This document shows positions 1 to 26,084 of a stretch of DNA of 64,000 nt, piece by piece. The notes beneath the pieces were generated by a model. It was not told the origin of the DNA. It made no database searches and saw nothing but the letters and a program-made list of their open reading frames with translations. Both the position numbers and the translations under genes were made by a program. Position 1 is the stretch's first letter; each line of letters opens with the position of its first letter. The DNA comes from an uncultured Alphaproteobacteria bacterium (GTDB taxonomy: Bacteria > Pseudomonadota > Alphaproteobacteria > Rhizobiales > Beijerinckiaceae): contig CAVRRI010000027.1 in NCBI GenBank assembly GCA_963723525.1, positions 79,807 through 143,806 of the forward strand, in the 5' to 3' direction.

Positions 1-362
1 ATCAGCCCCGCCGGCAGTCCGATGAGGAGCGCCAGCAGCGCCGCCGCCCCGATCAGCTCGAGGGTGCGCGGCAGGCGCTGCGCGATGAGCTCGCCGACCG
101 GGTTGCCGTCGATCAGCGACACGCCGAGATCTCCGCGCAGGAGACCCCACATGCTGTCCAGGTACTGCTCCAGGATCGGCCGATCGAGGCCGAGCTGCGT
201 CCTCAGCTCCTCGACGATGGCGGGATCGGGCGCGACCCCGCCCTGAGAGAGAAGCATCTCCGCGGGGTCGCCCGGCACCATCTGGATCGCCAGGAACACG
301 ATGGTCGCGACAATCCAGACCAGGATCAGGGCGACTGCGATCCGCTTCGCGATCCAGATCAC
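1..362 (-). CDS. Opp/Dpp-family ABC permease (DppB-like), 5' part; runs off the window start
   Basis: Manual translation from GTG at 362: VIWIAKRIAVALILVWIVATIVFLAIQMVPGDPAEMLL...LGLDRPILEQY...RGDLGVS...RLPRTLEL, a typical DppB N-terminus. Confidence 0.85.
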   Translation of the reverse strand, partial: MIWIAKRIAVALILVWIVATIVFLAIQMVPGDPAEMLLSQGGVAPDPAIVEELRTQLGLDRPILEQYLDSMWGLLRGDLGVSLIDGNPVGELIAQRLPRTLELIGAAALLALLIGLPAGL

Positions 363-378
363 GGCGCCGCTTCTCCCC

Positions 379-1895
379 TCAGCCGATCGATGTCTCCTCG
401 AGCGTGATCCCCGACGCGAAGGTCAGCGAGCCTGGAAGGTTGTGGAACCCCTCCACGGGCTTCTTCATCGCATAGCCCTGCGAACGCCAGGCGAGGCCCA
501 CGAAGGGCGCCTGCTCGAGCGCCTCCTTCTCCATTTGCGCATAGATCTCGCGGCGCTTCTCCGGATCGAAGGTCGAGCGTCCCTGCACGAAAAGCTCATG
601 CAGCCTCGGCGTCGACATGCCGTAGCTTCGCGAGATCGATTCCGGGAGCTCGGCATCGAGGAGGAAGGCAATCCCGTCTGGATCTGGGCTCAGCGCCGAG
701 TCGCCCACCACGGCGAAGTCGTATTGTCCGCGTCCGCCGAGCGTCAGGCGGGTGGCCCAGTCCGGCAAATTGAGCTTCGCCTGGATGCCGATCTCGGCGA
801 GGTGCTGCTGCACGATCTCGGCGGTCTGCTTGTGCATGCCGTATTGGGCGGTCGAGAGCAGCGTGCAGGGGAATCCGTTGGGCACGCCCGCCTCGGCCAG
901 AAGCTTCTTCGCCCGCTCCGGATCATAGCGCCAGTGGCGGCTGCGCGCCTCGTCGAAGTAGGGAGTGCCCGGCGTGAGGGGGATCCCCTCGAGGGGCGCC
1001 CCGCGTCCGAAGAAGGCAGCCTTGACGATCTCGTCGCGCCGGATCGCGAAGGCCGCCGCCTGCCTGACCCGGGCGTCCGTGAACGGCCCGGTGCGCCCGT
1101 TGAAGATGAGCCCCATGAACGGCCCGTTCGTGGTGACGAGCTTCAGCTTCGGGATCGTTCTCGATCGCGTCCATGGCTTGCCAGGGAACGTAGTCAATGA
1201 TGTCGACGTCGCCCGCCTGCAGCGCCGCGACGCGCAGGTTCTCGTCCGCATAGGCGACGAAGCGGATCGACTTGAGCTTGGGCAGGCCGGGCTTGAAGAA
1301 GCGGTCGAACGCCTCGAGGTTGATCGCGACGCCGCGCTCCTGGCCCTTGAGGACGTAAGGGACCGGCGCCGATCGGCGTGCTTCCGCTCTCCGTTGTGCC
1401 GCGGGCAATGATCGGCATGTTGAAGTTGGCGAACCACATCGGCACGGTGACGGTCGGCTCCTTCATCACGAGATGCACGGTCCGCTGGTCAGGGATCTTG
1501 ATCTCCTGCACGCTCTGGATCTCGGCCTTCAGATAGGCGGTCGACTTCTCGGCCGCGATCTGCTCGAGCGTCCACTTCACGTCCTCGGCAGTGACCGGCG
1601 CGCCGTTGTGGAACACGGCATCGCGCAGATGGAACACCCAACCGGTGTCGCCACTGCGCTCCCACCGCTCGGCGAGTTCACCGCGCAATTGTCCGTCCGG
1701 TCCGAACGAGGTCAGGCCGCGGAAGATCAGTTGCTTCACCGCCCCGGCCGCGGTTCCTGTGTGCCTCCAGGGATCGAGGTTTGGCGGATGGCTCGAGAGC
1801 CCGAAGACCAGCGAGCCCGACGCGGCCGCGAACGCCTCCATCCTGAGGAACGGGATGGCGGCACTCGTAAGCAGGAAAGAGCGACGAGATAGCAT
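379..1895 (-). CDS. ABC peptide/opine substrate-binding protein (SBP family 5) with Tat signal; split by indels
   Basis: ORFs 1194..1895, 923..1408 and 379..1437 join into one protein; N-terminal SRRSFLL twin-arginine motif; LRDAVFHNGAPVTAEDVKWT; YDPERAKKLLAEAG. Confidence 0.88.
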
Positions 1896-1919
1896 GGGAC
1901 ACCTCCTTGCCTGTCTTGG

Positions 1920-3577
1920 TTATGTGGCGCGGACGTAGATCTTGCGTGCCAGTTCCGGATCGATGCGGCCCTCCCGCACGTCACGCTCCACGAGTTCGCG
2001 TGCGCGCTCCTGCGGTGGACCGTAGCCGCCGGCGCCGGGCGTGATGATCTCGACGATGTCGCCGGCGCGCAGCAGCACTGCCCCGTCGCGGAACGGTTCC
2101 GTCCCCTCGCTGAAGCGGAATTCCCCCTTGCCGCCCGGCAACCCTCCGGCGAGACCCCAGGGGGGCGAGTGCAGGCGCGAGCCATCGAGGCCCACGCGGC
2201 ATTCCGCTTCCGCGCGATAGACGCGCCGCAGGCCCATGCCGCCGCGATAGGTGCCGGGTCCGCCGGAGCCGTCCACCAGCTCGTAGCGCAGCAGGGTCAG
2301 CGGATATTCGAGTTCCAGCGCCTCCACCGGCAGGTTCGACGTGTTGGTCATGTGCACTTGCACGCCGTCCAGCCCGTCCTTCGTGGCGCGCGCGCCCGAT
2401 CCGCCGCCGATCGTCTCCAGATAGACCCAGACGCTGCCGTCGCTCGGCCGCCGCCCGATGAAGCTCGCGGAGTTCACGGCGCCGTTGCAGGCCGCGATCA
2501 CCCGTTCGGGGACGGCCTGCGCCAGGGCGCCGTGCACTAGGTCGACGACGCGCTGGCAGGGCCCGATCCGCAGGTCGACCGCGGCGGGATGCTCGCAATT
2601 GAGGATCGTGCCCTTCGGCGCCGTCACCGTGATGGGCCGCGCCAGCCCGGCGTTCGGCAGGACAGTCGGGTCAACTACGGTCTTGACGGCGTAATAGACG
2701 GTGGCGAGCAGCGCCGTGTAGACCATGTTGAAGCCGGCGCGGACCTGCGGCGGGCTCTCGAAATGCAGATTGATCTCCTCGCCGCTGACCCTGATCTCGA
2801 CCGAGAAGGGCAGGTCGCGGTCGAGCGTCGGATTGTCGAACCGGTCGGTGAAGCGGTAGGTGCCGTCGGGAATGGCGGCGATCCCGGCGCGCATCTTGCG
2901 CTCGGCATAGTTCAAGAGCTCCTCGCCGGCCGCCAGCACCACGTCGCGCCCGTACTTCTCGCACAGCGCCGTCATGCGCATGACGCCCAGCCGGTTGGCG
3001 GCCATCTGCGCGCGCAAGTCAGAGAGCCGCTCGCGCGGCACTTGGCAGTTCAGCAGGATCAGCGCCTGCACGTCCTCCTGCAGCACGCCTTCCCGGTAGA
3101 GCCGGATCGGCGGGATGCGCAGCCCCTCCTGATAAATGTGGGCGTGGCCGCGGTCGGCGAAATCGGCATGGTGCGCGGTGTTGACCGCCCAGGCGACGAG
3201 ATCGCCGCTCGTAGAAGATCGGCTCGGCGAGCACGATGTCCGGCAGATGCGTGCCGCCGCCCTCATAGGCGTCGTTGCCGATGAAGACGTCGCCCGGGCG
3301 CAGCGTCTCGACCGGATGGCGCTGCAGGATATGCGGCAGGGTGCCGATGAAGCTGCCGAGATGCATCGGGATGTGCTCAGCCTGGCAGAGCGTCTGGCCG
3401 TTCACGTCGAAAAGCGCGGTCGAGCAGTCGCGCCGCTCCTTGATGTTGGTGGAGTAGCTCGCCCGCACGAGGGCCTCGCCCATCTCCTCGACGATGGAGG
3501 AGAGCGCGCTGCCGATGACCTCGACGGTGATCGGATCGACCTGGACCGCGTGCGAAACCGGAATGGATCTCGCTCAT
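1920..3577 (-). CDS. Hydantoinase B / 5-oxoprolinase subunit (HyuB/AgaF-like); split by indels
   Basis: DPITVEVI..., RASYSTNIKERRDCSTA, GGTHLPD, HHAD, QEGLRIPP, ETIGGGSGA, MTNTSNLPVEALE, TPGAGGYG motifs across ORFs 3377..3577, 3019..3483 and 1920..3266. Confidence 0.9.
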
Positions 3578-5630
3578 GAGGCCTCCAGGATCATGTTCAG
3601 ATAGGGTTCGACCCGCGCCGTCATGCCCGGCAGGATGATGGTCGTCGTGTCCATCTGCTCGACAATGGCGGGCCCGGCGATGCGGTTGCCTGCATCCAGC
3701 CGGTCGCGGTCGTAGATCGGGCAGGACACGAAGCCGCCGGCCTCCGGCAGCCAGACCTTGCGTTGGCCGACGATCGCACGCTGACGCATCCGGGCCGGCA
3801 TCGTCGCGCGGCTCGAAGCTTCGCCTTGCGCACCAGGCCTGCTGCCTCGACGCGGAACGTCACCAGCTGAACGGCCTCGCCCTCGGCGACGAAGCCGTAC
3901 ATGCGCCGATGCGCCCGGGCGAAACCGTCCGCCAGCGCGTCGAGCGTCGCCGACGTGATCGGTCCCTCCGGCACCGGGATCGCCAGCTCGTAGTTCTGCC
4001 CGGCATAGCGCATGTCCACCGTGCGGGTGAGCTGCCGGGCCTCAGGCGCGATGCCCTCTTCCTCGAACCAGTGCTCCGCCTGCTCGTGCAGGTGAATGAA
4101 GGCGGTGTTGATGTCGGGGAGGGCCGCCGTCGTCAGGATATGCAGCCGGGTGGTGGCGAAGTCGGCCCGCAGATCGGTCAGCAAGAGCCCCATCGCACAG
4201 AGGATCCCCGGCGTGCGCGGCACGAGGATGCGGCTGATGTCGAGCTCGCGGGCGAGACGCGCCGCATGCAGCGGCCCTGCCCCGCCGAAGGCAACCAGGG
4301 TGTAGTCGCGCGGGTCGTGCCCGCGCTGCACGCTGATCACCCGGATCGCCCTCGCCATATTGGCGGTTACCACCGCGAGGATGCCCTGGGCGGTCGCCAT
4401 CACATCCATTCCCAGTCTGCTCGGCGAGCCGCGCGATCGCCGCCTTGGCGAGGTCCTGTCGGACCGGCATGCGTCCACCCAGGAGATAGGTCGGATTCAG
4501 TGTCTGCAGCACCACATTGGCGTCGGTGACCGTGGGCTCGCTGTTGCCCCGGTCATAGCAGACCGGACCCGGATCGGCGCCGGCGCTGCGCGGTCCCACC
4601 TTGAGCAGGCCGCCGCTGTCCACATCGGCGATCGAGCCGCCGCCCGCCCCCACCGTGTGGATGTCGAGCATGGGCGCCTTGATCGGATAGCCGTGTACCA
4701 CCGCCTCGCTGGCGAGCCGGCACTGCCCGCCCTGCAGCAGTGCCACGTCGCTGCTGGTTCCGCCCATGTCGAAGGTGATAAGGTTGTCGAAGCCGGCCAT
4801 GCGGCCGACCTCCTGCGCCGCGACCACGCCCGTGCTCGGGCCTGACAGCACGGTGCGGACCGGCAGCCGCGCCGCCGCCTCGAACCCGATCACGCCGCCG
4901 TTCGACTGCGTCAGATGCGGCGTCGCGGACAGACCGAGCCCGGACAGGCGTTCCGCCAGCCGGTCGAATATAGCCCTGCATGACCGGCCCGAGATAGGCG
5001 TTTACCACGGTGGTGGACATGCGCTCGTATTCGCGGAATTCGGGCGCCACTTCGTGGCCGGCGCAAACATAGGCCTCAGGGAACTCCTCGGCGACGATGC
5101 GGCGCGCCGTCTCCTCGTGCTCGGTGCGGACGAAGCCATAAAGGAAGCAGACCGCCACGGCCTTAACCCCGGCCTCGCGCAGGCGGCGCGCCGCCTGCCG
5201 CAGCGCCTCTTCGTCGAGCTTGGTCTCCACCGTGCCGTCGTGGCGCAGCCGCTCGGGGACCTCGAGGCGCAGGTCGCGCGAGACCAGGACGGGCGGCTTG
5301 TCGGCCTGCAGGTCGTAGAGGTCGGGACGCTTCTGCCGCCCGATCTCCAGGAGGTCGCGAAAACCCGCCGTCGTGATCAGGCCGGTCGGCACGCCGCGGT
5401 GCTGGATCAGAGCGTTGGTGGCAACGGTCGTGCCGTGGCCGAAATAGCCGACCTCTTGTGGCATCGGCCTCGACCCGCCCCACCCCTTCCTTGACGCCCT
5501 GGGCGATGCCCCGCGAGGGATCGTCGGGCGTGGACGAGACTTTCCACACTTCCAGCCGGCCCGTCGTCTCCTCGAACAGGCAGACATCGGTGAAGGTCCC
5601 CCCTGAATCCACACCCACACGCCAGACCAT
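3574..5630 (-). CDS. Hydantoinase A / oxoprolinase ATP-binding subunit (HyuA/AgaG-like); split by indels
   Basis: MVWRVGVDSGGTFTD, HGTTVATNALI, REYERMSTT, SGPSTG, DMGGTSSDV, GAGGGSI, PTVTDANVVL, AFGGAGPLHA, DMRYAGQNYEL. Confidence 0.92.
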
Positions 5631-6255
5631 CCGAAGACCTCCCATGATGATCGACAAGGAACGGGTCCGGACCTGCGCCCGAGCAAAGTCACGTACTCCA
5701 TGTAGCGTCCGGGCCGCCAAGTGAAAAGAACAGCCTCGCGGCTGGATGACCGGAGAAGCCCGGTTCGGCCTTGCCGACCGAGCAAGGCTCCGGTCGAGAG
5801 CCTGCTGTGCAACGGCCTACGACGATCGAGTTTTCAGGCCGAAACGGCGACTCGGCGCCCCGGTCTTCGGCAAAGCTTCGCAAGACTTGCTCCAGTTCTT
5901 GGATGATCTCCACGCCATCAACGCAAGCCGCCATTTGCGAGGTCCGGCATCTCGAGAGACGACCTCGACAAAGTACCAGGTTGCGCCAAACCTCGCTATA
6001 CTTCTTCGTGTGAAGAGCGCCAGTGTCCAAGACGCGCTATCGGCTGGCGGCTGTCCAGCTCGGCCGGTGAGTGACGACTGCAGCCCTGCGCAGCCGGCTG
6101 TTTAATCGGCAGTGGCAATCGACTGAGGACATGCTCCGAGGACCAGCGCTCGCTGTCCTAGAACGCGCCGAGGCAGGCATGCGAATGCGCCGCGCTCGCC
6201 TTCGACCTCTGCCGCCCACCTGTGACCTTTCAAGCTCCTGACTTGAGGTAACCCC

Positions 6256-7575
6256 ATGAGGCCAGGCGTCGATCCCGTTCGGTCCGACATCGAAGTTCCC
6301 GCCCGTTCCGACGTGGTGGTGGTGGGCGGTGGGATTGCCGGTGTCAGCACCGCCCTCTTCCTGGCGCAGCGCGGCGTTTCGGTGACGCTCTGCGAGAAGG
6401 GCCGGATCGGCGGCGAGCAGTCGAGCCGGAACTGGGGCTGGGTCCGCACCATGGGGCGGGACCCGCGCGAGATTCCGCTCAGCATCGAGAGCCTCCGGCT
6501 GTGGCGCAACATGAACGCGACGGTGGGGGCCGAGACCGGCTACCGCGAGGCCGGCATCGTCTACCTTTGCGACACGCACCAGGACGTCGAGAAGCACAAG
6601 GCGTGGCTGGAACATGCCCGCCCCTACCAGGTCGACTCGCGGCTCCTCGGCCCCGAGGAGGTCGACCGGCTCTTGCCCGGCAGCGCGCGGCCCTGGGCGG
6701 GAGCGCTCTATACGCCGAGCGACGGGCGCGCTGAACCTGCCAAGGCGGCGCCCGCCATAGCAGAGGGCGCTCGGCGCTTCGGCGCCACGATCCTGACGGG
6801 CTGCGCTGTCCGGGGGCTGGAAACCCAGGCCGGGCGCGTCTCGGCGGCGGTGACCGAGAAGGGGCGTATCGCCTGCGGCTCGGTCGTGCTCGCCGGAGGC
6901 GCCTGGTCGCGTCTCTTTTGCGGCAATCTCGGGGTGAAGTTTCCGGCCCTCAAGGTTCTGGGCTCGGTGATGCGCACACAACCACTTGAGGGTGGGCCCG
7001 AATGCGCTGTGGGCGCCTCCGATTTCGGCTTTCGCAAACGGCTCGACGGCGGCTACACGGTGGCCCGGCGCGGCGCGACCGAGGCCGATATCGTGCCCGA
7101 CAGTTTTCGCCTGTTCTTCGACTTCCTCCCGGCTTTGCGCGTGCAGTGGAAGGAGTTGCGCCTGCGCGTGGGCCGCCGCTTCCTCACCGAATGGCAGGTG
7201 CCGCGCAAATGGTCGCTCGACGCTCCCTCGCCCTTCGAGAAGGTGCGCGTCCTCGATCCGGAACCGGCCGGATCCCTGCTCGAGGAGGCACGCGAGAACT
7301 TGTCGCGTGCCTTCCCCTTCTTCAGCAACATGGTCGAGGCCGAGCGCTGGGCTGGCCTCATCGACGTCACCCCGGACGCCGTCCCGGTGATCTCCGCGGT
7401 GGACGCCCTGCCCGGCTTCTTCATCGTATCCGGCCTGTCCGGGCACGGCTTCGGTTTCGGCCCGGGAGCCGGACGCCTCATGGCCGACCTCGTCACCGGC
7501 GCGCCGCCGATCGTCGACCCAACCCCGTTCCGCTACACCCGGTTTTTCGACGGCTCACGGCCCAGGCCGTACTAG
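6256..7575 (+). CDS. FAD-dependent oxidoreductase, D-amino-acid oxidase family (AgaE-like)
   Basis: Intact 439-aa ORF; GGGIAG FAD motif, GEQSSRNWGWVR, C-terminal SGHGFGFGPGAGRLMADL. Confidence 0.9.
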   Translation: MRPGVDPVRSDIEVPARSDVVVVGGGIAGVSTALFLAQRGVSVTLCEKGRIGGEQSSRNWGWVRTMGRDPREIPLSIESLRLWRNMNATVGAETGYREAGIVYLCDTHQDVEKHKAWLEHARPYQVDSRLLGPEEVDRLLPGSARPWAGALYTPSDGRAEPAKAAPAIAEGARRFGATILTGCAVRGLETQAGRVSAAVTEKGRIACGSVVLAGGAWSRLFCGNLGVKFPALKVLGSVMRTQPLEGGPECAVGASDFGFRKRLDGGYTVARRGATEADIVPDSFRLFFDFLPALRVQWKELRLRVGRRFLTEWQVPRKWSLDAPSPFEKVRVLDPEPAGSLLEEARENLSRAFPFFSNMVEAERWAGLIDVTPDAVPVISAVDALPGFFIVSGLSGHGFGFGPGAGRLMADLVTGAPPIVDPTPFRYTRFFDGSRPRPY

Positions 7576-7776
7576 CTAAGCTAATAGCCTAATGAGAAAC
7601 TACGGTGGTTGGAGCCGTGGCCGTTTCATCCCCTGCGGGTCGGCCCGGCCGGTGGCCCACTTGGAAGAAAATACCCGCGGCAGCGTTGCAGACACCCTCG
7701 GCGTCGATATTGCGATGCCACGATGGGCGCTACACGCTGAGTCTAGTCGGATCGACCGCAAGGGCTCCGACTGACT

Positions 7777-7908
7777 TCACAATAGGGGCGGCCGCTGGAA
7801 TCCGGTTGTTGTAGGCGTCTTGACGAAGATGCTGCGGCCCGTCCGCTCGTCGAACACGCAGAGGTCGGTGAAGGTGCCGCTCACATCGCAGCCGGTGCGC
7901 AAAGCCAT
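7777..7908 (-). pseudogene. Truncated hydantoinase A N-terminal relic (43 aa)
   Basis: MALRTGCDVSGTFTDLCVFDERTGRSIFVKTPTT aligns with MVWRVGVDSGGTFTDVCLFEETTGRLEVWKVSST of the 5630 gene, then stops; starts 4 bp after the stop of the PLP enzyme. Confidence 0.8.
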
Positions 7909-7911
7909 GGT

Positions 7912-8917
7912 TCAGGCTACCCTGTCACGGGTGAGGATATCCGCGAATGGAAACAACGCCGGAGATCCGCCGCAATGGACGAACAGGACGCGGCTTCCCT
8001 GCGCGATGCTGCCGCAGTCGCACGCGGTCGAGCAGACCCGCGAACGCCTTGCCGGTGTAGACGGGATCCAGAAACACGCCCTCCGCTTTCGCGACCTTGC
8101 GGATGGCCGCGTTGCCCTCCTCGCTCGGAATGGCATAGCCGGGGCCGACATAGTCGTTGTCGATGCGGATCTCGGCGGCGCTCCATCGCCGGGCATAGCT
8201 GAGCATTTCCGCGCCGGCATTGGCCATTGCCGCGATACGCTCGGAGAAGGGCACGGCTGTGGCGCTGACGGCAATGCCGGCCACCTGGGTGTCCGGCCAG
8301 AACATTGAGCAGCCGATCAGCAGTCCGGCCAGAGTGCCGCCCGATCCGACCGGCGCCACGATCACTTCCGGCACAGCGATGCGCGCCGCCGCATACTGCT
8401 CGGCAAGCTCCTTCACCGCGCCGACATAGCCCATTGCGCCGAGCGCGCTCGCTCCGCCCAGCGGGATGATGTAGGGGCGTTCGCCCCGCGCCAGCGCCTG
8501 GTCGGCGTGCAGCTGCATGCGTGGGTTGATCTCGGTGAAATAGGCGTCAGGGTCGAGGAAATCGATTTCGGCGCCGAGAAGATGGTCGAGCAGCAGGTTG
8601 CCCTGGTAAGAAGCTGGTCGGTTACCGCGCAAGACGAGCACTGGCCTCATGCCGAATTTGCGCGCCGCCGCTGCGGTCATTCGTGCATGGTTGGACTGAT
8701 GCCCCCCCGTCGTGATCAGAACGTTTACGCCTTGCGCCAGGGCATCGGCCATCAGGTATTCGAGCTTGCGCACCTTGTTGCCGCCGCCGCCAAAGCCGGT
8801 GAAGTCGTCGCGCTTCACCGAGAGATCGATGCCGAGTTCCGACCCGATGCGGTCCAGCTTTTCAATCGGCGTGGGCAGAAAGCCGAGCGAAAGCCTGGGA
8901 ATATCGCCTAGCTTCAT
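7912..8917 (-). CDS. D-cysteine desulfhydrase / ACC deaminase-family PLP enzyme; one indel near the C-terminus
   Basis: KRDD..GGGGNKVRKLEY (PLP lysine), QSNHAR, IPLGG, GSGGT, LDPVYTGK; C-terminus VLFVHCGG continues in the 7912..8274 frame. Confidence 0.9.
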
Positions 8918-8989
8918 CGCGGACCTCTTTGACTTGAATAGGCAGCGCGTCGACTCCAGTCAGCCGGGCAAAGACTGTAGAGCATGTCT

Positions 8990-9005
8990 ATGATATATGA
9001 TATAT
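8990..9005. promoter_or_regulatory. Putative GntR operator ATGATATATGATATAT (copy 1)
   Basis: Tandem TGATATA heptamers in the divergent promoter between 8917(-) and 9121(+); identical 16-mer at 17595-17610. Confidence 0.7.
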
Positions 9006-9120
9006 TCCAGATCTCGGCTGCAAGCGATTTTTCGGCGTTCAGCTTGACCCGGTGCAGCAGCTCGTTTCCGGGCGTGCGTTGAAGATGTGGCTACGATGGC
9101 GCGTTTTCGAGCGAGGCGAG

Positions 9121-11682: not shown

Positions 11683-11709
11683 TATGCCCGCCGATATCCC
11701 GTCCTCGAA

Positions 11710-11865
11710 TCCCGATTTCGCCTCTCGAAAGCCTGCCCGGCCTGACAGTTCGGACTGGCTTCTCGGGCCACGGCGTTGGGATCGGAGAAAATGCTAGCGG
11801 ATCTGGCGACGGGGACGCACCCTCGTCCGACCCGCACCCGTTCCGCTTCTCGTGCTTTATCCAAC
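11710..11865 (+). pseudogene. C-terminal relic of a DAO-family oxidoreductase
   Basis: ISPLESLPGLTVRTGFSGHGVGIG / KMLADLATG / DPHPFRFSCF parallels ISAVDALPGFFIVSGLSGHGFGFG..LMADLVTG..DPTPFRYTRF of the 6256..7575 gene; no N-terminus present. Confidence 0.75.
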
Positions 11866-11904
11866 GCGATTGGCTCGATCTCCAGCGCTACCTCTGAAAG
11901 CAGC

Positions 11905-12891: not shown

Positions 12892-14264
12892 TGTCGAGCA
12901 ATTCTACGGGAAACGGCTATGTCATTGCCCATCGCTTCGAGCCAAGCTGAAATCGAGCGAAGAAAACGTTCGAAGCCTTCTAGCGTCATGAATTCATTGA
13001 CGCCGTGCGCGTTGCCGCCGCGCCCTGCGCCTCCGAGCAGGAACGATTCCGCGTGGCGCGCAAAGGCATAGCCCGGTGCCGCCCCAATTGCCCACGGCCA
13101 GATCTGCGGCAGCCTCGACGTCGCGGCATACGCGGCAAGCAACGCGTCCACGCCGGCGGAATTTCGAGGGAAACGCTGGCCCGGGTAAGAATCTGCGACA
13201 GAAACAGCCACGCCACGGAGGCCGAGTTCGGCCAGCCGCCGCCGGTAGGCCTCGACATGATCAGCTGGATCGAGAGATGGCGGGCAGCGCAGCTCAAAGC
13301 CGGCTTGCGCCGCTGAGGGGATGATCGCGTCGCCCACAGCCGGCTCGGTCGAAAGGCTCGAGATATTCACCGATGCAGTGGTGAGCACGTGGTTTAGCAA
13401 CGCCTGGGCGTCACCTTGCACCGCGTACTTGTAGGCATGCCGGAAGCGCAGTTCTGCCTGGGGATCGAAGTTGGCGGCGAGCGCCTCGACGACTTCCCGG
13501 GCCTCTGAATCAAGCGCGATGGTTTGCAGCGCACCGACCGGCGGGCGGCCGAAGTGTGCCAACGCCTCGACCAGCCGACTGGCGGGATTGGCAATCCAGG
13601 GCGCATTGCTCGAATGGATCGGCGCGCGGGGCCCGCCCCAGGAGCCGCCCTCTACTCGCACCGTGCCCTTGGCGATACCCGAGAAGCCGAGATAGAGGCG
13701 TGGCGGCCCTCCTCCGTACTCGCAGAAGGATGGGAACAGCCCACTCCTACTTCGTCGCACCGGGCAGGCTCTGTCGAGTAGATAGTCGCGTAGCGCGCCG
13801 CTACCGCTTTCCTCCTCACCTTCGACTAGAATTTCGACATTGACGTTTAACCTACCGGCATCGGCGAGCTCTTTCAGCACGCACAGCATGCCAGCGAGCG
13901 GCCCCTTGTTGTTCTCCGCGCCGCGGGCGACGAAGCTCGGGCCGATGCCGTCGAGATCGATGATGTCCCCTCCGAACGGGTCGGCCACCCAGCCAGCCGG
14001 ATCAGCAGGCATGACGTCGTACATATTGTAAAGGATGACCGTGTCCTCTGACCCGACATCTAGCCGAGCGTGGATCACCGGTGGCCGGCCGCGATCCGAC
14101 CGGGAGGACACGAGCTCGGCTCGGAGCTCCCGCACTAGCCAGTCGGCGACGCTGCGCGCCTGTTCACCAATCGCAGCATTATCTCCGGGCACCGACGGGT
14201 TGCGGCACCATCGCCACGTTAGGGCAAGGGCCTCGGATGCGAGTTCGGAGAGGCCGTCGCTCAA
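12888..14264 (-). CDS. M20/M25/M40 metallo-hydrolase, dipeptidase-like, with altered metal ligands
   Basis: YNMYDVMP, ARGAENNKGP, EGEEESGS, HSS, NAHGVNE. Confidence 0.85.
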   Translation of the reverse strand: MSDGLSELASEALALTWRWCRNPSVPGDNAAIGEQARSVADWLVRELRAELVSSRSDRGRPPVIHARLDVGSEDTVILYNMYDVMPADPAGWVADPFGGDIIDLDGIGPSFVARGAENNKGPLAGMLCVLKELADAGRLNVNVEILVEGEEESGSGALRDYLLDRACPVRRSRSGLFPSFCEYGGGPPRLYLGFSGIAKGTVRVEGGSWGGPRAPIHSSNAPWIANPASRLVEALAHFGRPPVGALQTIALDSEAREVVEALAANFDPQAELRFRHAYKYAVQGDAQALLNHVLTTASVNISSLSTEPAVGDAIIPSAAQAGFELRCPPSLDPADHVEAYRRRLAELGLRGVAVSVADSYPGQRFPRNSAGVDALLAAYAATSRLPQIWPWAIGAAPGYAFARHAESFLLGGAGRGGNAHGVNEFMTLEGFERFLRSISAWLEAMGNDIAVSRRIARQ

Positions 14265-15181
14265 AGCCTAATCCTCGGATTGAGCCAGACATAGGCGATG
14301 TCGACCAGGAAGTTGACCACCACAAAGACGAAAGCGGCGAAGAGTACGACCGCTTGGACGACGGGGAAGTCGCGATTCTGAATTGACTCAACCGCCAAGC
14401 GCCCGATGCCGGGCCAAGCGAAGACAATCTCGGTCACCAGCGCGCCGCCGAGCAAGGAGGCGAAGTACATGCCCTGCACTGTAATCACTGGAATGAGCGC
14501 GTTGCGTAGCGCGTGATGCACCACTACGCGCCAATTGGATACGCCCTTTGCGCGCGCTGTACGGATGTAGTTCTCCCCGAGCACTTCGATCAGGCTCGCC
14601 CGTACTAAACGGGTGATAGCGCTGAGATAATAGGCGCCGAGCGCGATGGATGGCAGGATGAGCTGCTTTGCCGTACCTATGCCACTGCTCGGCAGCCATC
14701 TCAGCTTTAGCGAAAACACGATAATTAGGATGAGCGCCAGCCAGAACACTGGGATTGCCTGGCCGAGCAGCGAGATCACCCGTATTGCGAAGTCGATCGG
14801 GCTGTTCTTGCGCACAGCCGCGATGGTGCCGAGCAGGAATCCGAGCAACGAACTCCACAACAACGCCACACAGGCAAGCAGCGCCGTCGCCGGCAGGCGT
14901 TCAAATAAGAGGTCGTGCGCCGGGCGTTGGAACCGCAGCGAAATGCCGAGTTCGCCGCTGAGCGCACCACCAAGGAACCGGCCATATTGCACCCAGACCG
15001 GATCGTTGAAGCCCATCTTTTCACGAAATGCGTCGATCTCCACGCGCGTAGCGTCGGGCGGCATCATCAGCGCAGCCGGATCGCCCGTCAAGAATAGCGC
15101 AAAAAAGACGATGAGCGATACTCCGAACATTACAGCGATGCCCTGTAGGGCGCGGCCAGCGACGAAGGACAGCGCTTTCAC
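14261..15181 (-). CDS. Opp/Dpp ABC permease B
   Basis: GDPA..., YIRTARAKG, HALRNALIPVIT, EIVFAWPGIG, RDFPVVQ. Confidence 0.92.
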   Translation of the reverse strand: MKALSFVAGRALQGIAVMFGVSLIVFFALFLTGDPAALMMPPDATRVEIDAFREKMGFNDPVWVQYGRFLGGALSGELGISLRFQRPAHDLLFERLPATALLACVALLWSSLLGFLLGTIAAVRKNSPIDFAIRVISLLGQAIPVFWLALILIIVFSLKLRWLPSSGIGTAKQLILPSIALGAYYLSAITRLVRASLIEVLGENYIRTARAKGVSNWRVVVHHALRNALIPVITVQGMYFASLLGGALVTEIVFAWPGIGRLAVESIQNRDFPVVQAVVLFAAFVFVVVNFLVDIAYVWLNPRIRL

Positions 15182-15184
15182 GAA

Positions 15185-16030
15185 TTAGGCATTCCTGCTG
15201 TCGGCGCGGCGGACAAGCCAGTCGCCAAGGAGATTACAGCCTATGACCAATGCGCCGATGACAAGCCCTGGATAGAGCACCAACCAGTTGGCCAGCAGGA
15301 TAAAGGCCCTGCCCTCACCGATCAGGTTGCCTAGCGTCGGCGTCGGCGGCTGCACACCGAGGCCGAGAAAGCCGACCGACGCTTCTAGAATGATCAGACG
15401 CGGAAGGTCGAGCGTCAACAGCACTGTCTGCGGTCCGATTATGTTCGGCAGCACGTGGCGGAAAATAATGGCGAAGTTGGAGAGCCCGATAGCACGGGAC
15501 GCGTCGATATATTCCAGCTCCCGGATCTCCAGGGTCTTGGCGCGGGCGACGCGGGCGAAGATCGCCCAGCCGGTGACGCCAAGCACCACGATCAGATTGC
15601 CCATACTCGGACCGACCACCGCCACAATGAGCAGGATGAGCAGGATAAACGGGATGGCGAGCTGAACGTCGACCGCGCGCATGATGACGATCTCGAACCA
15701 GCCGCCGAAATAACCGGCGATCATTCCAAGCGCCGTGCCGAGAAAAACCGAGATCGCCGCCGCGACGATGACGATGCCGAGTGAGATCCGCGTTCCAAGC
15801 GCCAGCCTGGCGAGAAGGTCCCGCCCTAGCTGGTCGGTGCCGAGGGGGTGCAGTTGCTCCCCCACGGTGGTGAGCGGCGGCCGGAATGTCGCCGTTAGCA
15901 GACCGCGGATCGGATTGACCGGCCACAGTAGCGGCACGAGCACGCAGATCGCGCCGACAGTCGCGAGGAACGTGACCGCCAGGATGGCATCCGCATTCTG
16001 CCTGACAATCCAGATCCGCGTCATCTTCAC
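15185..16030 (-). CDS. Opp/Dpp ABC permease C
   Basis: HPLGTDQLGRDLL, YIDASRAIG, RHVLPN, FLGLGVQPP. Confidence 0.92.
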   Translation of the reverse strand: MKMTRIWIVRQNADAILAVTFLATVGAICVLVPLLWPVNPIRGLLTATFRPPLTTVGEQLHPLGTDQLGRDLLARLALGTRISLGIVIVAAAISVFLGTALGMIAGYFGGWFEIVIMRAVDVQLAIPFILLILLIVAVVGPSMGNLIVVLGVTGWAIFARVARAKTLEIRELEYIDASRAIGLSNFAIIFRHVLPNIIGPQTVLLTLDLPRLIILEASVGFLGLGVQPPTPTLGNLIGEGRAFILLANWLVLYPGLVIGALVIGCNLLGDWLVRRADSRNA

Positions 16031-17514
16031 CGCATAGTCATGTCAAAGACCGGAATGCGCGCGTCGGGACGGCCCTCGAATCCGACCTTCTTGCTTTTCC
16101 CGTACAGCGAGTCCTCCTGGTAAAGGGTGATCAGCGGTACCTCCTCGGCGGCGAGCTTTTGGATGTTGTCCAACACCACCTTGCGGGCCTCTGGATCAAC
16201 AATCTGCCGGCTTGCGTCGAGCAGCTTATCCAGCTGGGGAATCGACGCGGTTGAATAGGGCTCGCCGGTCTTCATGATGGCATAGATTGCTGCGTCCGAA
16301 TCAAGCGTCTGAGTCGAGCCCCATCCGAGCATGAAGATCGGCCCCTGACGTGGCACCTGCTGCACATAGACGGACCAGTCGAGCACTTCCTGCTTGACCT
16401 TTACGCCGATATCGCCGAACTGCTGCGCTATCGCTTGAGCTACCTCGACGTCCTTCATGTAGCGACGGGTTGACTGCATTTTGATCGAGAAGCCGTCCGG
16501 CAGGCCGGCTTCGGCGAGCAGCTTCTTGGCCCTGGCCGGATCATAATTCGGCGCGGGGATGTCGACATAGCCAAAATCGGCCGGCCCCACCTGAGTACCC
16601 CTTACGGTTGCCATGCCCTGCAGGATGTTGTCGACGATCGACTTGCGATCAATCGCTATATTCAGCGCCTGCCGCACCTTAACGTTATCAAGCGGCTTCT
16701 CGTTCATCACTAGCCCGAGATAGATAGTGAGGCCGCCATTCTTGACCTGGACCAGATCAGCGTCCGGAGCTTGAGGTGATCATCGGCGCCAGGTCGACGG
16801 GTACGTTCTCGATTAGGTCGACCTCGCCCGTGACGAGTGCGGTGAGCCGCGCCGTACCGTCCGGGATCGCGCGCCAAGTCACTTTCCTGATCGAGGGCGC
16901 GCCGCGCCAATAGTCGGGATTGGCTTCGAGGATCACGTGCTGGTCGGGGATGAATTCGATGAACTTGTAGGGACCTGTGCCGACCGGTTTCGTTGCAAAG
17001 GTGTTATTGCCGACTGCCGCCACATATTTCGGCGGCACGATGTAGGCCGGGTAGCGGCTCATACGGGTCGGCAGGAGTGGGTCCGGTCCGGCAGTTTTGA
17101 TGCGGACCGTGAAGGGGTCGACTACCTCGACGCTCTCGACGGTGCGGATGTAGGAGAGTGTCGGGGATTTGGCGTTCGGATCGAGAATTCGATCGACGGT
17201 GAACTTCACCGCGTCAGCCTTGAATTCTTCACCGTTATGGAATTTGACACCTTGAGCGAAGCTTGAACTCCCAGGTGGTGTCGTTGATCGCTGCCCAAGA
17301 CTCTGCAAGACCGGGGACGAGCTGCATGTTCTTGTCACGCATGACGAGCGTGTCGAAGATATTGTCGACGATGGTCGCAGCCTCCCGAAGGAAGCCCGGG
17401 TCCATCGCTGTGGTCGACACCTGCCGGGCAATGGTGAGCGCCTTTTCCTGGGCGGCGGCCGGAATTCGGCAGCAGCATGGCTGCCATGAGTGAGAGTGCG
17501 AGGAATCTTCGCAT
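16027..17514 (-). CDS. ABC peptide substrate-binding protein (SBP family 5) with Sec signal; split by indels
   Basis: MRRFLALSLMAAMLL..AAAQEK signal; GVKFHNGEEFKADAVKFT, PVGTGPYKF, YDPARAKKLLAEAG. Confidence 0.88.
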
Positions 17515-17594
17515 GGCTGTGACGCTTTCTCCGTTTGTTGCTGGTCCTTCACGTTGCCGGTGAGTGCGAGCATTTAAGGCCTTTCAGTCGGAGA

Positions 17595-17610
17595 ATGATA
17601 TATGATATAT
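17595..17610. promoter_or_regulatory. Putative GntR operator ATGATATATGATATAT (copy 2)
   Basis: Lies in the divergent promoter between the SBP(-) and GntR(+) genes; identical to 8990-9005. Confidence 0.7.
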
Positions 17611-17677
17611 CGGAAACCTACAAGCGTAGGCGCAGGACAAGCGTAGGCGCATAGGCGCTTTGGCAGTCGAAGTGAAG

Positions 17678-18417
17678 ATGCATCCGAGGAGATCCGTGAA
17701 GCTATTTAACGCGGTGCCGCGCAAGAGTCTGGTCGCCCATGTCGAAGACGAACTTCGTGCTGCACTGATCGAAGGGCGGCTGGAGCCAGGAACGCGGCTG
17801 GTAACCAGGGAGCTCGCCGATTCACTTGAAATGAGCATCACGCCAGTGCGAGAAGCTCTTGTCCGGTTCGCCGCATCCGGCGTGCTCGCCGCCGAGCCGG
17901 CGCAATCCTTTCGGGTCCCGATGCTCACCGCTATGCAATACGCCGAGATCTCCGAGGTGCGTAAGGCGGTGGAGGGGCTTGCTGCCGCCAAGGCAGCAAC
18001 TCGCATAGCCTCCGCCGAGATCGCGCGGATGGAAACGCTGCTCAGCGAATATCTCGCCGCGAAGAGCGCTGGTGATCCGCACCTCGCGCTCAAGAAGAAC
18101 AAGGAGTTCCGCTTCGTGCTCTACGAGGCGGCGAAGATGCCGACGCTTCTCGCCGTCATCGAGATGCTGTGGCTGAAGGCAGGGCCAGGGATTCAACTAT
18201 CTCTACCCGGAGGAGCGCAAGGGCTTGTCGGAGCACCACAACTATGGACGACCTTCTGGCGGCGCTGCGCAGCCGCTCGGCGGAGGCCGCGCGCGCGGCG
18301 ATCGAGCATGCGATTGATGACGGAGCAAAGCGCGTGATTGCGGCACTCTCCCTGCGCTCGGAAGCGAAGGCGGCGGAAGAGACGCAGGTCTCAACCCGCA
18401 GTGAAGCGCCGCGTTAA
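17678..18417 (+). CDS. GntR-family (FCD, McbR-like) transcriptional regulator; start uncertain; indels near the C-terminus
   Basis: GRLEPGTRLVTRELADSLEMSITPVREAL winged HTH; NKEFRF..MPTLLAVIEMLW; C-terminus [18 protein letters not shown] in the 18169..18417 frame. Confidence 0.9.
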
Positions 18418-20714
18418 TGCAGGACTCGGGCTCTTATCGCGCTTCGTACCGGCGGCTCAAAGATCCGCAGTCCGGGCGCCTCTCCCTCGAAACGCTTGAT
18501 CTCGACGAGGCAGGACTGCGCCGTGCAGCCCTGCCCAAGCTCGGATGTGCCGATATCGCGGGTGAGCACATTCGGATTGGAATTGCGGTCGGCCGCGCCG
18601 TCCGGGTCGTAAGTTGCTCCGGTCGGCAGCAGTGCGACGCCGCGCACCAGACCGGCATCGAGGCCGGCGACGGCCAGACAGGCGCCCCGCGAATTGAAGA
18701 GTGCGTACGAGGTCCCCGTCCGAAATGCCGCGCGCCTTTGCGTCGTCCGGATGCATGGTCACGATCTCGCGACCACCGCGCTTCTGCGAGCGACTAATGC
18801 TGCTCCAGTCCATCTGTCCGTGCAGACGGCGCGCGGGCTGCGGCGTCAGAAGATGGACTGGGAACTCTTCGACAAGCGGGCTGCCTAGCCACTCCTCCGG
18901 GTCGAGCCAGGCTGGGTGCCCAGGCTGCGCGGGATCGCCGAAACCGGCCACCGCGTTGCTGTAGATCTCAATTTTTCCGGAGGGAGTGTTGAGCGGGTTC
19001 GCCACCGGGTCGTCGCGGAACTCCGACAATCATCACATGATCCTTGCTAGGCGCCTCAACGCGGAGATACCCCTGCTCCCAGAATTCATCAAAGGAAGGG
19101 ACGGCCATGCCGCGCCGGGCGAGCGCGCCCGAGATTTCCGCCCAGGCATGCGCAGCCAGTCGTCCTCGCTGCGGCCTTCCGTGAAAGCATCTCCCGCGCC
19201 CAGACGCTCGGCAAGCGCGGCGAAGATCGCAATAGTCGTTGCGCGCCTCGCCGACAGGCTCGAGCAGTTTGTGCATTGCCAGAAGATACGGATCCCTCGA
19301 GGCACCCGCCGATGTCGTTGCGTTCCAGCGCCGTCGTCGCGGGGAGGACGATGTCAGCGTGACGGGCCGTCGCGGTCCAGTAGCATTCGTTGACGATTAC
19401 CGTTGCCGGCCGCCGAAAAGCCTGGCGCAGCCGGTTGAGGTCTTGATGATGATGGAACGGATTGCCGCCCGCCCAATAGACCAGCCGAATATCGGGATAG
19501 GTGATCGGGCGACCGTCGAAGCGGACCGTCTCGCCCGGGTTGAGCAGGAGGTCGGCGACTCGCGCCACCGGGATCGCGATGTCAACCGGATTAATGCCGA
19601 TCGGCAGGCCATAGAGCGGCGTGTCGGGGCGCGGATTTCCCATGCCGTTTGACGAACCATAGCCGAAGGCGAAGCCTCCGCCTGGCAAGCCGATCTGGCC
19701 GAGAATTGCCGCCAGCGCGATAATCGCCCAATAAGGCTGCTCGCCGTGTCGGGCGCGCTGTAGGCTCCAATTGGCCGCCACCAGTACGCGCTTGCCCGGC
19801 AAGCGAGGCAGCAACCTCACGGATCTTTTCGGCGCGAATGCCAGTGATTCGGGAAGCCCATTCCGGCGTCTTCGCGATCCCGTCCGACTTCCCGAATAGA
19901 TAGTCGACGGTACCGCCCGAATCCTTCGCAGTGACTGTCGAGAAAAGGCTGGGCATGCTTCCGAGCCAAGATGATCTCGTAGGCGAGTGCAAGTAGCAGC
20001 GCCGTATCGGTATTCGGGCGGATGGGAAGCCATTCTGCGGCGTACCCTGCCGCGATATCGCCCTTGAATGGCGAGATATTGAGCACGCGCACACTGCTTG
20101 TAACGTCCTGCATGAAATCCCTGAAGCGGTGCTGGCCGAAGCCGCCCGACAGGACCTCCCAATTCTTCTTGGGAATGCCGCCGAAGGCGAGCATGATGTC
20201 GGTGTGATCGCGGATCGTCTCGAACGAGGTCGTCGCCGAGCCCACCGCATCCGGCACTCCGAGGATGCGCGGCAGGAAGGCCATTGCCGCGCCATAACTG
20301 TAGTTAGTCACCTGGTCCGTAAAGCCGCCGATAGAATTGAAGAAGCGCCGCACGAGGGTGCGCGCGTGGTGCAGGCGGCCGGCGCTCGACCAGCCATAGG
20401 AGCCGGCGAACAGCGACGCATTGCCGAACTCGCCGCGTAATCGGCCGATCTCGCCCGCCGCCATGTCGAGCGCCTCGTCCCAGCCAACTTCGACGAATGT
20501 GTCCTCGCCTCGCTCGACGCCGTCATCGCGCCTCAGCCAGCCGCGGCGGACCGAAGGTTTGGCAACGCGCAGTGGCGAGGTCACCATCTCGGGCCAGACG
20601 GAGATCAGGTCACTGGGCTCCGGATCGTGCTCGAACGGCGCGACCCTCACGAGTCGGCCGTTCGCTACTTCCGCCCTGAACGCGCCCCAATGGGACAAGG
20701 ATCGCAGGATGCAT
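18414..20714 (-). CDS. DMSO-reductase-family molybdoenzyme, cytoplasmic BisC-type S-/N-oxide reductase; several indels
   Basis: SHWGAF N-terminus with no Tat signal; GSYGWSSAGRLH, NYSYGAA (Ser Mo ligand), WAGGNPFHHHQD, TPSGKIEI, RLHGQ, NPNVLTRDIGTSELGQG. Confidence 0.88.
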
Positions 20715-20770
20715 CAGTTGGCCTTTCCGAAGAGCTTGCCGCAGATGATCGTGAAAAGCGAAACGGCGCA

Positions 20771-21612
20771 TCAGGCCGATTCCTTCGGCAGATCGTCGCG
20801 GCGGCCCCATTCGTTCCAGGAGCCGTCGTAGATCTTCCAGCGTTCCTTGCCCATCCGGACGAGCTGGAAGGCTAGAACGGCGGCTGTTACGCCCGAGCCG
20901 CAGGTTGAGATGATCGGCCGTTCTGGGTCGATGCCGGCCTCTCGGAAAATCCTTTCCGCGGCATCAGGCGTTTCGAAACCGAAATCGCCGCTCTGGCGGA
21001 TCATTCTGCTCCATGGCAGGTTTATCGCGCCGGGCATATGGCCGGGTGGCAGGCCCGGATAGCCCGATGGCAACTCGCCCGTGAACCGCTCCGTAGTGCG
21101 CGCATCGACCACCTGTGCCTCGCCGGATTGTACGGCGCCGAGCACCTGCGCCAGTCGGCGACCTGCCCGGCCGGCCCGATCGCCGTGAATTGTCGCCGCG
21201 GCCACCGGCATCGTATCGCCGGTCTCGACCGGGCGCCGCTCCGCCTTCCAGCGCCGCCAGCCGCCATTCAGAATTCGGACCCTGTCATGGCCGAAAAGGC
21301 GGAACATCCACCAGACCCGCGCGGACACATAGCTCGCATCGTAGACGATGACCTCGTATCGTTGTCGATTCCGAGACTGCCCACCACTTCCGCGAATTGC
21401 TCCGTCGACGGCAGCATGTTCGGATAAGGCGAGGTCTTGTCCGACGCAGCGTCGAGATCGAAATAGCGCGCGGCGGGAATATGGCCCTCACGGAAGCTTT
21501 CCAGCCCGCATTTGCCTGCCTCGGGCGAATACCAACTGCAGTCGATTACGACGAGGTCAGGTCGCCCGAGTTTTTGTTGTAGTAGGCCGGGTTCGATGAG
21601 GAAGAGGTCCAT
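20771..21612 (-). CDS. sseA: 3-mercaptopyruvate sulfurtransferase (two-domain rhodanese); indels
   Basis: GHIPAA, RVWWMFRLFGH, GHMPGA, active-site loop CGSGVTA, YDGSWNEW. Confidence 0.9.

Positions 21613-23506: not shown

Positions 23507-26084
<2,578 letters not shown>

Follow-up and report, generated by a model that had tools for sequence, protein, structure and literature searches.

A conserved gene cluster that probably imports and desulfurates an amino-acid conjugate, adjoining an aga-like opine module in an uncultured member of the Beijerinckiaceae

Introduction

On contig CAVRRI010000027.1 of an uncultured member of the Beijerinckiaceae (assembly GCA_963723525.1), a stretch of some 21.6 kb brings together two solute importers and a series of catabolic enzyme families whose proximity raises a simple question: do these genes serve one pathway, and what would it consume? 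The stretch occupies positions 1-21612 of the window, by which we mean the whole 64,000 nucleotides analyzed (1-64,000). The original prediction took it to be an island encoding a single twelve-enzyme pathway for an opine-like, sulfur-bearing amino-acid conjugate. Its inventory is borne out, as scans of coding-like open reading frames (ORFs) with Pfam and NCBIfam, on which all family calls here rely, place the twelve listed families inside 1-21612: two SBP_bac_5 importers, Hydantoinase A/B, a DAO oxidase, a DcyD-family PALP lyase, an SDR, an OCD enzyme, an M20 protein, a GntR/FCD regulator, a BisC-family reductase and a rhodanese of the 3-mercaptopyruvate sulfurtransferase (MST) type. The notion of a single pathway fares less well. 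Judged from its genes, the stretch is a chimera of an aga-like module (module A, 1-7575 plus DNA upstream of the window) and a conserved cluster (module B, 7795-21612), the latter probably a horizontally acquired system, shared by more than 80 alpha- and gammaproteobacterial species, that imports and desulfurates an amino-acid conjugate.

Intact orthologues for comparison were taken from G011, a genome of the same genus with a module-A-like locus (L013), and, for module B, from the metagenome contig L020. The distribution of module B was assessed in 83 loci, namely L020, L021, L022 and 80 more from a scan of species genomes, each scored with the L020 proteins over 10-kb flanks. These loci represent Rhizobiales, Rhodobacterales, Acetobacteraceae and Enterobacterales; they stem from related genomes, and the counts given below describe distribution and not independent events.

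Results

Module B is a recurrent gene set

Orthologues of the OCD protein, at 44-78% identity, are present in many genomes, and the partners found around them are largely constant: M20 and OCD occur in all 83 loci, the permeases in 82, the SBP5 binding protein in 80, GntR in 75, the ATPase in 71, PALP in 70 and a rhodanese in 65. Since the same genes recur together in 83 other loci, the set is not a chance juxtaposition, and the co-occurrence that had been proposed as a check on the original prediction is indeed found, with importer, M20 and OCD in 80-83 loci. On the other hand, the SDR (31 loci), DAO (25), HyuA (24) and the molybdenum enzyme (16) are optional, from which it follows that neither lactam opening nor a route from DAO to 3-mercaptopyruvate can be core chemistry, and the single twelve-enzyme scheme cannot stand in that form. 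De novo clustering of all ORFs disclosed no further partner family (racemase, RidA, exporter or other) in more than 11 of the 83 loci.

The fullest arrangement is that of L020, which comprises rhodanese, molybdenum enzyme, GntR, SBP5, two permeases, M20, OCD, DAO, SDR, ATPase, PALP, HyuA and HyuB. A Mesorhizobium locus has the same set with a glyoxalase in place of the molybdenum enzyme, and that of Rhizobium sp. CF142 lacks HyuAB, DAO and SDR. In Rahnella, Pantoea, Pectobacterium, Enterobacter and other Enterobacterales, GntR comes first, followed by a contiguous one-strand block of SBP5, two permeases, M20, PALP, OCD and rhodanese and, after that, by the ATPase. Many of the host species are plant-associated, and copies elsewhere lie on plasmids or beside insertion sequence (IS) elements. 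Each part belongs to a known family, and catabolic regulons that are linked to an importer and serve an amino-acid conjugate are of a known type; the combination appears to be new, as a search of the accessible part of the literature returned no description of this set of genes or of the M20 and lyase variants (see below). Clusters for ectoine (EutBC), hydroxyproline (LhpI), creatinine or N-methylhydantoin, ergothioneine and hydantoin (HyuC), and those of the E. coli ygeXY type, were considered and rejected on known family traits and NCBIfam scores, their family subtypes or partner genes being different. The known catabolic genes for the opines methiopine and sulfonopine likewise differ from the cluster.

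A shared operator marks module B as a probable regulon

Both divergent promoters of module B contain an identical 16-base AT-rich sequence. Copy 1 (GATATATGATATAT, 8992-9006) lies between PALP and the ATPase, a position that is also occupied in orthologous loci, and copy 2 (17597-17611) lies between the module B binding protein and GntR; within the 64 kb, GATATATSATATAT occurs solely at these two places, with 0 occurrences expected by chance. The palindrome GATATAT(G/C)ATATAT is located in the divergent promoters. With up to 3 mismatches allowed, the 16-base sequence is found in 67 of the 83 loci, at the GntR/SBP5 and ATPase/PALP intergenic regions, and it stands in addition 40-70 bases before the type-1 (MST-like) rhodanese in L020, L021, L024 and L042. 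A search for a third operator before the rhodanese of the window found none, the region there having been replaced: similarity between the window and L020 begins exactly at the rhodanese ATG, which argues that the native control region was lost, beside an IS5-family element. The best explanation of these patterns is that 7795-21612 is an instance of a conserved and mobile regulon governed by the GntR/FCD regulator (17696-18378, plus strand; PF00392 and PF07729), with the operator as its putative binding site. Just downstream of copy 2, in the same intergenic region, a direct 15-base repeat (ACAAGCGTAGGCGCA) is present as two copies with a 2-base spacer (17620-17651).

The lyase and the rhodanese point to sulfur

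The pyridoxal phosphate (PLP)-dependent beta-lyase of the DcyD/CuyA family (PALP; 7921-8917, minus strand; PF00291), which is 88% identical to its L020 orthologue, belongs to the TIGR01275 family, with scores of 294.7 in the window and 310.5 in L020 against a cut-off of 289.4. Intact PALPs fall below the equivalog cut-offs throughout (CuyA, NF052482, 312 and 309 against 450; DcyD models 230-253 against 429-610; 1-aminocyclopropane-1-carboxylate deaminase 209-249 against 392-550), the best score being that of CuyA, followed by XcbE. Hence the DcyD-like lyase of the original prediction is right as to family, whereas its scores place it nearer to CuyA, a D-cysteate sulfo-lyase, than to DcyD. In E. 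coli, too, the DcyD gene adjoins an importer of sulfur amino acids.

Its motifs are highly conserved: GGNKVRK, with the Schiff-base Lys, and QSNH, with the Ser-Asn pair, are each found in 70 of 70 orthologues, DPVYTGK in 67, and the D-specific Tyr in 68. In StDcyD and CuyA this Tyr takes the alpha proton of D substrates, which gives D-specificity (PMC11193023). At the position that corresponds by numbering to StDcyD Thr315, 28 residues past the catalytic Tyr, 66 of the 70 have Cys (HCGG) and 2 have Thr (the L020 PALP being L020:15175-16179); it is possible that this Cys is a persulfide-forming residue next to the leaving group. As no racemase is conserved in the cluster, the D centre would have to arrive with the substrate, as it does in opines, and opines bearing sulfur are known (methiopine and sulfonopine; PMC4575208, PMC5740067).

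The rhodanese slot is filled by either of two non-orthologous types. One is MST-like, with the loop CGSGVTA, which we take to be the 3-mercaptopyruvate-specific rhodanese loop, and is found in 8 loci and the window; the other, in 57 loci, is a tandem type with CHRGARA. An intact type-1 orthologue scores 246 on the SseA model (PRK11493/NF008557) against a cut-off of 250; the window copy (20774-21612, minus strand; PF00581), next to the IS5 element, is frameshifted with its loop present. A 317-residue rhodanese of the CHRGARA type (L066:10863-11816) matched no NCBIfam model and, as in 57 loci, follows the OCD gene. Lyase and rhodanese are both present in 62 loci and both absent in 10 (Jiella, Dryocola/Buttiauxella). 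The link to sulfur in the original prediction proves robust, given two non-orthologous rhodanese types in one slot and a BisC-family reductase recruited in three lineages.

The Dryocola/Buttiauxella loci (L071:2152-3183, L068:3824-4330), which lack a DcyD-type lyase and a rhodanese, have beside the cluster a PALP gene resembling cysteine synthase/CBS and an Rrf2-family regulator. An aldehyde dehydrogenase next to them matches the aminobutyraldehyde dehydrogenase equivalog and is probably a mere neighbour.

An altered M20 protein, an OCD enzyme and their partners

The two invariant enzymes are both intact in the window. The M20-fold protein (12888-14264, minus strand) matches PF01546 at 53.6 bits and has the Sulfolobus carboxypeptidase Sso-CP2 as its nearest PDB relative (125 bits). 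The five metal ligands expected of M20 metallopeptidases (His, bridging Asp, Glu, Glu/Asp and His, alongside a general-base Glu) are incomplete, with the first His replaced by Met and the bridging Asp by Asn, and the corresponding motifs are nearly or wholly invariant (NMYDV in 81 and RGAENNKG in 83 of 83 orthologues); the window copy retains EEE and NAH..E, as do most of the orthologues matched by the motif search. The OCD/SbnB/mu-crystallin-family NAD enzyme (11905-12891, minus strand) scores 96 against a cut-off of 24 on PF02423 and 134.8 on TIGR03944 (SbnB), in a full-length alignment that falls short of the equivalog cut-off of 326.9. Its nearest PDB entries are about equidistant at 50-73 bits: mu-crystallin (a ketimine reductase and thiomorpholine-carboxylate dehydrogenase), SbnB and CmnK.

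The module B importer consists of a binding protein (SBP5#2, 16027-17514, minus strand; PF00496 in two ORFs), two intact permeases (14261-16030, minus strand; PF00528, 94-95% identical to L020) and a fused DppD/F-type ABC ATPase (9121-10960, plus strand; two ABC_tran domains and oligo_HPY). GsiB is the best NCBIfam model for an intact orthologue of the binding protein, whose nearest PDB entries with characterized ligands include GsiB/YliB, AccA and HbpA; a binder of amino-acid amides is also near. Among the optional members, the SDR (10972-11682, plus strand; PF00106) is intact and 78% identical to L020. The BisC-family S/N-oxide reductase (18441-20713, minus strand), recognizable in the window from fragments of Molybdopterin_N, Molybdopterin and Molydop_binding, reaches 897.6-922.5 bits in intact orthologues on TIGR00509, below the cut-off of 1017.55. 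These alignments start at residues 2-15, which we read as absence of a twin-arginine translocation (Tat) leader; the best PDB matches, trimethylamine N-oxide and dimethyl sulfoxide reductases, are aligned from its residue 6, past the first 37-50 residues of their full-length chains. Three kinds of locus encode a leaderless enzyme of this family, namely the L020 type, the Rhizobium/Neorhizobium type and that of Endosaccharibacter, and identity to the L020 copy is only 45-49%.

Module A resembles the opine genes of Ti plasmids

The HyuA, HyuB and DAO of the window are not those of the L020 cluster, to which they are only 41-50% identical (DAO 50%); their closer relatives are in the G011 locus (HyuA and HyuB 51-75%, DAO 57%). 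There, HyuB and HyuA lie on one strand and SBP5, two permeases, the ATPase, DAO, SDR and RidA on the other, and M20, OCD, lyase and rhodanese are absent. In the window, module A runs from the N-terminal part of a permease (1-422, minus strand; PF19300, 60% identical to that of G011), which leaves the window at its first base, through the binding protein (SBP5#1, AgaA-like; 385-1895, minus strand; PF00496 split over two ORFs), HyuB (AgaG-like; 1920-3564, minus strand; PF02538 from profile position 109) and HyuA (AgaF-like; 3580-5670, minus strand; Hydantoinase_A and Hydant_A_N/C over three ORFs) to an intact FAD oxidase of the DAO type (AgaE-like; 6256-7575, plus strand; PF01266, 250 bits). The rest of the importer, a second permease and an ATPase split into two frames, lies upstream of the window on the same strand, and is itself adjoined by a polar amino-acid ABC importer (SBP_bac_3, permease and ATPase; window -7900 to -4800, G000:C27).

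Related genes lie on tumour-inducing (Ti) plasmids. Over 97% of its length the DAO shows 60-61% identity to an FAD oxidoreductase encoded, on octopine-type Ti plasmids, ahead of two hydantoinase genes (the AgaE position), HyuA and HyuB of G011 are 64% and 61% identical to the proteins at the AgaF and AgaG positions, and the best PDB match of the G011 binding protein is AgaA (6HLX, the agropinic-acid binder) at 240 bits, the second match reaching 124. All three domains (Hydant_A_N, Hydantoinase_A and Hydantoinase_B) are present in HyuAB, which reach 528 and 215 on caprolactamase models against 1000, the window copies being frameshifted. By these similarities, 1-7575 and the DNA upstream can be described as an aga-like lactam-opine module. 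AgaE, AgaF and AgaG are reported (Lyi et al. 1999) to open a lactam at the expense of ATP and then to cleave a C-N bond oxidatively. The opine-like logic of the original prediction agrees with the homology, with the proviso that the HyuAB and DAO of the window belong to a second system and not to the pathway into which they had been drawn. The HyuAB and DAO of module B are more distant paralogues (35-46% identity). A gene of the RidA family is found with the aga-like module of G011 (L013:17031-17483) and also near the aga genes of the Ti plasmid (NC_002377.1, 90352-90774); the window has none.

What module B retains of these enzymes are relics: the first 38 codons of its hyuA (7795-7908, minus strand; 82% identical to residues 1-38 of the L020 HyuA), which immediately follow PALP as they do in L020, and the last 64 codons of its DAO (11715-11894, plus strand; 55% identical to L020 DAO residues 386-449), after the SDR as in L020. 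Both are genuine deletions and not sequencing errors. Since only relics of the module B HyuA and DAO remain, the stretch is best read as a chimera in which module A replaces the lactamase and oxidase of module B. Between the DAO gene of module A and the hyuA relic lies an element resembling a dispersed repeat (7588-7669), copies of which, 83-85% identical, occur in at least 4 other places in the genome (C34, C27:156462, C21 twice and C11).

Origin of the island

No OCD orthologue turned up in a sample of 60 further genomes of the genus, of which 46 had a completeness of 90% or more. An IS5-family transposase (21774-22745, minus strand; PF01609 and PF05598; 202.5 bits on NF033581, above its cut-off of 140) marks the right edge, and conserved gene order with G041, the closest relative, sets in just past the island, the flanking genes in G041 being on other contigs. 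Most of the island has a guanine-plus-cytosine (GC) content of 59-66%, compared with 68-75% for the core next to it and 66.6% for the genome on average. These features fit acquisition by transfer and agree with the island-borne location originally proposed; the left edge is undefined, because lower GC extends across the first ~102 kb of the contig. DNA searches in relatives recovered mainly paralogous ABC ATPases, and revealed the module A locus of G011 as well. With GC at 59-69% over the first 24 kb the raw ORF lists are noisy, and gene calling on third-position GC (GC3) alone missed island genes owing to their lower GC.

Frameshifts: assembly error or decay

Most of the listed genes are interrupted and spread across two to six frames. 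Comparison with intact orthologues places 2 frameshifts in SBP5#1 (near 1170 and 1360; three frames against G011), 1-2 in HyuB (one near 3204; frames -3/-2 against G011 at 72-74% identity) and 4 in HyuA (near 3777, 3820, 4410 and 4960; five high-scoring segment pairs in alternating frames against G011), a +1 insertion each in PALP (~8016) and the ATPase (~9565; 82-84% identical to L020 over two frames), 3 in SBP5#2 (~16768, 17255 and 17466; four frames against L020 at 84-100% identity) and 2 in GntR (~18181 and 18246; three frames against L020), 7 single-base indels in the molybdenum enzyme and 1-3 in the rhodanese (one at ~21354). In total some 22-25 single-base frameshifts break 9 genes, about 7-8 of them in module A and 15-17 in module B; only DAO, SDR, OCD, M20 and the two module B permeases are uninterrupted. 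Set against L020, the island indels are nearly all +1 insertions, mostly outside homopolymers. No true nonsense codon is met when each frame is followed, the sole two stops lying where a +1 and a -1 indel enclose a brief out-of-frame segment.

Core genes beside the island are broken in the same manner, with 6 events of the +1 type in 22.7 kb. Among the genes affected are aroA and those for two proteins of 777 and 640 residues, respectively 93% and 93-96% identical to their orthologues. In the case of aroA (24204-26087), a +1 insertion near 25359 carries the 3' end of the gene into the frame of cmk, so that aroA and cmk form one frame of 628 codons, with the first ~85 profile positions of 5-enolpyruvylshikimate-3-phosphate synthase outside it. 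One or two +1 frameshifts per gene are likewise present in core genes at 31256-33551, 39564-40515, 42520-43013 and 47590-49403 (76-96% identical to G041), at about 32242, 40296, 42828, 42887 and 47931. The damage to core genes points to consensus errors throughout the genome.

It might be held instead that the locus is a decaying, non-functional remnant, in which many frameshifts are genuine and accumulated after acquisition and rearrangement. There is a case for this, in that frameshifts amount to ~1.1 per kb in the island and 0.26 per kb in the core, the structural losses are real (the HyuA and DAO relics of module B, and the vanished region upstream of the rhodanese operon beside the IS5 element), and the damage extends to the regulator and to the binding protein and ATPase of each module. 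However, the type of indel is that of core genes 93-96% identical to their orthologues, there is neither a nonsense codon nor a bias toward deletion, protein identity to L020 holds at 78-95% across the breaks, and the genome has an estimated completeness of 88.6% in only 39 contigs, most relatives being at ~99-100%. We regard decay as the less likely, though by no means negligible, account. As the same +1 insertions affect conserved core genes and nonsense codons are absent, most of the frameshifts are probably errors of the assembly consensus; apparent pseudogenes of this genome would then be largely artefacts, and its gene calls need correction.

Discussion

Overall, we hold with moderate confidence that the stretch combines a conserved mobile GntR/FCD regulon for a sulfur-bearing N-substituted amino acid with an aga-like module beside it. 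What is observed is a conserved gene content, a common operator and the state of the motifs; from these and from family chemistry we infer a substrate class and a tentative order of steps. A sulfur-bearing, N-substituted amino acid, opine-like or peptide-like, would be imported by the Dpp-type ABC importer; the M20-fold protein would take off an acyl or peptidyl decoration; and the OCD-type enzyme would oxidize the secondary-amine C-N bond at the alpha carbon, giving a D-beta-thio- or D-beta-sulfo-alanine for the lyase, or 3-mercaptopyruvate for an MST-type rhodanese. Lyase and rhodanese would then strip the sulfur. Of the optional enzymes, HyuAB could reopen a lactam form and the BisC-type reductase, a cytoplasmic enzyme by our reading, could reduce a sulfoxide form, and in this genome module A may supply the lactamase and oxidase functions lost from module B.

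Several observations weigh against this proposal. Within 10 kb, 18 loci have no rhodanese and 13 no lyase. No enzyme reaches an equivalog cut-off (CuyA 312/450, DcyD 253/429, SbnB 135/327, caprolactamase 528/1000), and the M20 protein, with its altered metal site, may be no hydrolase at all. Membership of SBP_bac_5 does not name a ligand, given that near relations take ligands as varied as glutathione, agrocinopine, nickel chelates and amino-acid amides; substrate and order of steps are both conjectural. In the window itself, the operon of rhodanese and molybdenum enzyme is without its native upstream region, and the density of frameshifts is ~4 times that of the core, with none in 10960-16030, so some of the damage could be real.

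Two other substrates deserve to be weighed. The cluster might serve the ordinary scavenging of sulfur peptides (Cys-Gly, glutathione, gamma-Glu-Cys or cystine peptides), with the M20 protein as a Dug1-like dipeptidase, the lyase and rhodanese handling cysteine sulfur, and no opine-like amine involved. This would suit a binding protein whose best model is GsiB and whose near structural relatives GsiB/YliB and HbpA bind glutathione, as well as the weak similarity of the M20 protein to Dug1 and CNDP2, and HyuAB could, judging by its family, be a 5-oxoprolinase. It leaves the invariant OCD/SbnB-type enzyme without a role, however, since peptide hydrolysis offers it none; the D-specific Tyr of the lyase is retained and its best score is that of a D-cysteate lyase, but the cluster has no conserved racemase; the canonical dinuclear dipeptidase metal site is altered in all orthologues, and no gamma-glutamyl-cleaving enzyme is present. 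We consider it unlikely.

More improbable still is a substrate free of sulfur, such as a beta-substituted alanine or a conjugate of the diaminopropionate type (resembling N-(1-amino-1-carboxyl-2-ethyl)-glutamic acid, ACEGA, or cyanoalanine peptides), from which the lyase would remove an amine or cyanide and the rhodanese detoxify the by-product. The full-length match of the OCD protein to SbnB, the presence of CmnK among its PDB neighbours, the detoxification of cyanide by rhodaneses and the many plant-associated hosts could all be accommodated by such a scheme. It is opposed by the recruitment, on three occasions, of BisC-family S/N-oxide reductases, by the loop CGSGVTA in one rhodanese type, a loop specific for 3-mercaptopyruvate, and by the proximity of the lyase to sulfo-lyases in its scores.

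A further, speculative possibility that we would not yet favour is that of a widespread and undescribed pathway for a natural sulfur metabolite new as a bacterial nutrient, run by a Met/Asn variant of M20 and by a DcyD-family lyase whose active-site Cys, at the Thr315 position, would hand sulfur on as a persulfide to a dedicated rhodanese. Candidate substrates for it would be an N-substituted D-cysteine or D-cysteate opine, or a thiazolidine or thiomorpholine carboxylate together with its sulfoxide or lactam. That one nine-gene regulon is present in plant-associated Enterobacterales, in rhizobia, in marine Rhodobacterales and in Acetobacteraceae implies that some sulfur compound of uncharted turnover is common in the environment. 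Three handles for finding it are offered by the cluster, namely its binding protein, its lyase (near CuyA) and an FCD-type regulator whose operator is clear. The replacement of His by Met and of Asp by Asn, invariant as it is, defines in addition an M20 subfamily with a probably new use of metal or new chemistry.

Comparison with known systems places module B between several of them. With CuyA and DcyD (PF00291, TIGR01275) the lyase shares the Schiff-base Lys, the Ser-Asn pair and the Tyr that takes the alpha proton, CuyA being its top model; it differs in falling under both equivalog cut-offs, in the Cys at the Thr315 position and in its company, which includes neither a CuyB racemase nor a CuyZ exporter and consists instead of OCD, M20 and rhodanese. 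The mammalian route from D-cysteine through DAO to 3-mercaptopyruvate and MST has counterparts in the MST-type CGSGVTA rhodanese and in the DAO of some loci, but DAO is optional in the cluster and most loci have the other rhodanese type. Mu-crystallin, the ketimine (thiomorpholine-carboxylate) reductase, is a nearest solved relative of the OCD protein. The pairs SbnA/SbnB and CmnB/CmnK, of L-2,3-diaminopropionate synthesis, likewise join a fold-type-II PLP enzyme to an OCD-family NAD enzyme; SbnB is the best hidden Markov model for the OCD protein, and the OCD partner of SbnA/SbnB oxidatively cleaves an N-(carboxyalkyl) secondary amine. That system is biosynthetic and has no link to an importer, however, and the PLP partner in our cluster is of the DcyD type and not of the cysteine-synthase type. 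To the S/N-oxide reductases BisC, MtsZ and TorZ, cytoplasmic or periplasmic, the molybdenum enzyme is related by its TIGR00509 scores, though under the subfamily cut-off and apparently leaderless; we know of no description of BisC inside a regulon of importer and catabolic genes.

The closest parallel to module A is the aga system of Agrobacterium Ti plasmids (agaDBCA, agaE, agaF and agaG) for agropinic and mannopinic acid, with which it shares a four-gene SBP5 importer, a DAO-type oxidase, HyuA and HyuB, enzymes 60-64% identical to the Ti-plasmid proteins, and a binding protein whose relative has AgaA as its nearest structure. That binding protein is itself just 33% identical to the Ti-plasmid protein at the AgaA position, which suggests that its ligand is probably different, and the host here is not Agrobacterium and the locus is chromosomal. 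In module B, by contrast, more distant relatives of the same HyuAB and DAO are accompanied by M20, OCD, lyase and rhodanese, all four of them absent from the aga locus.

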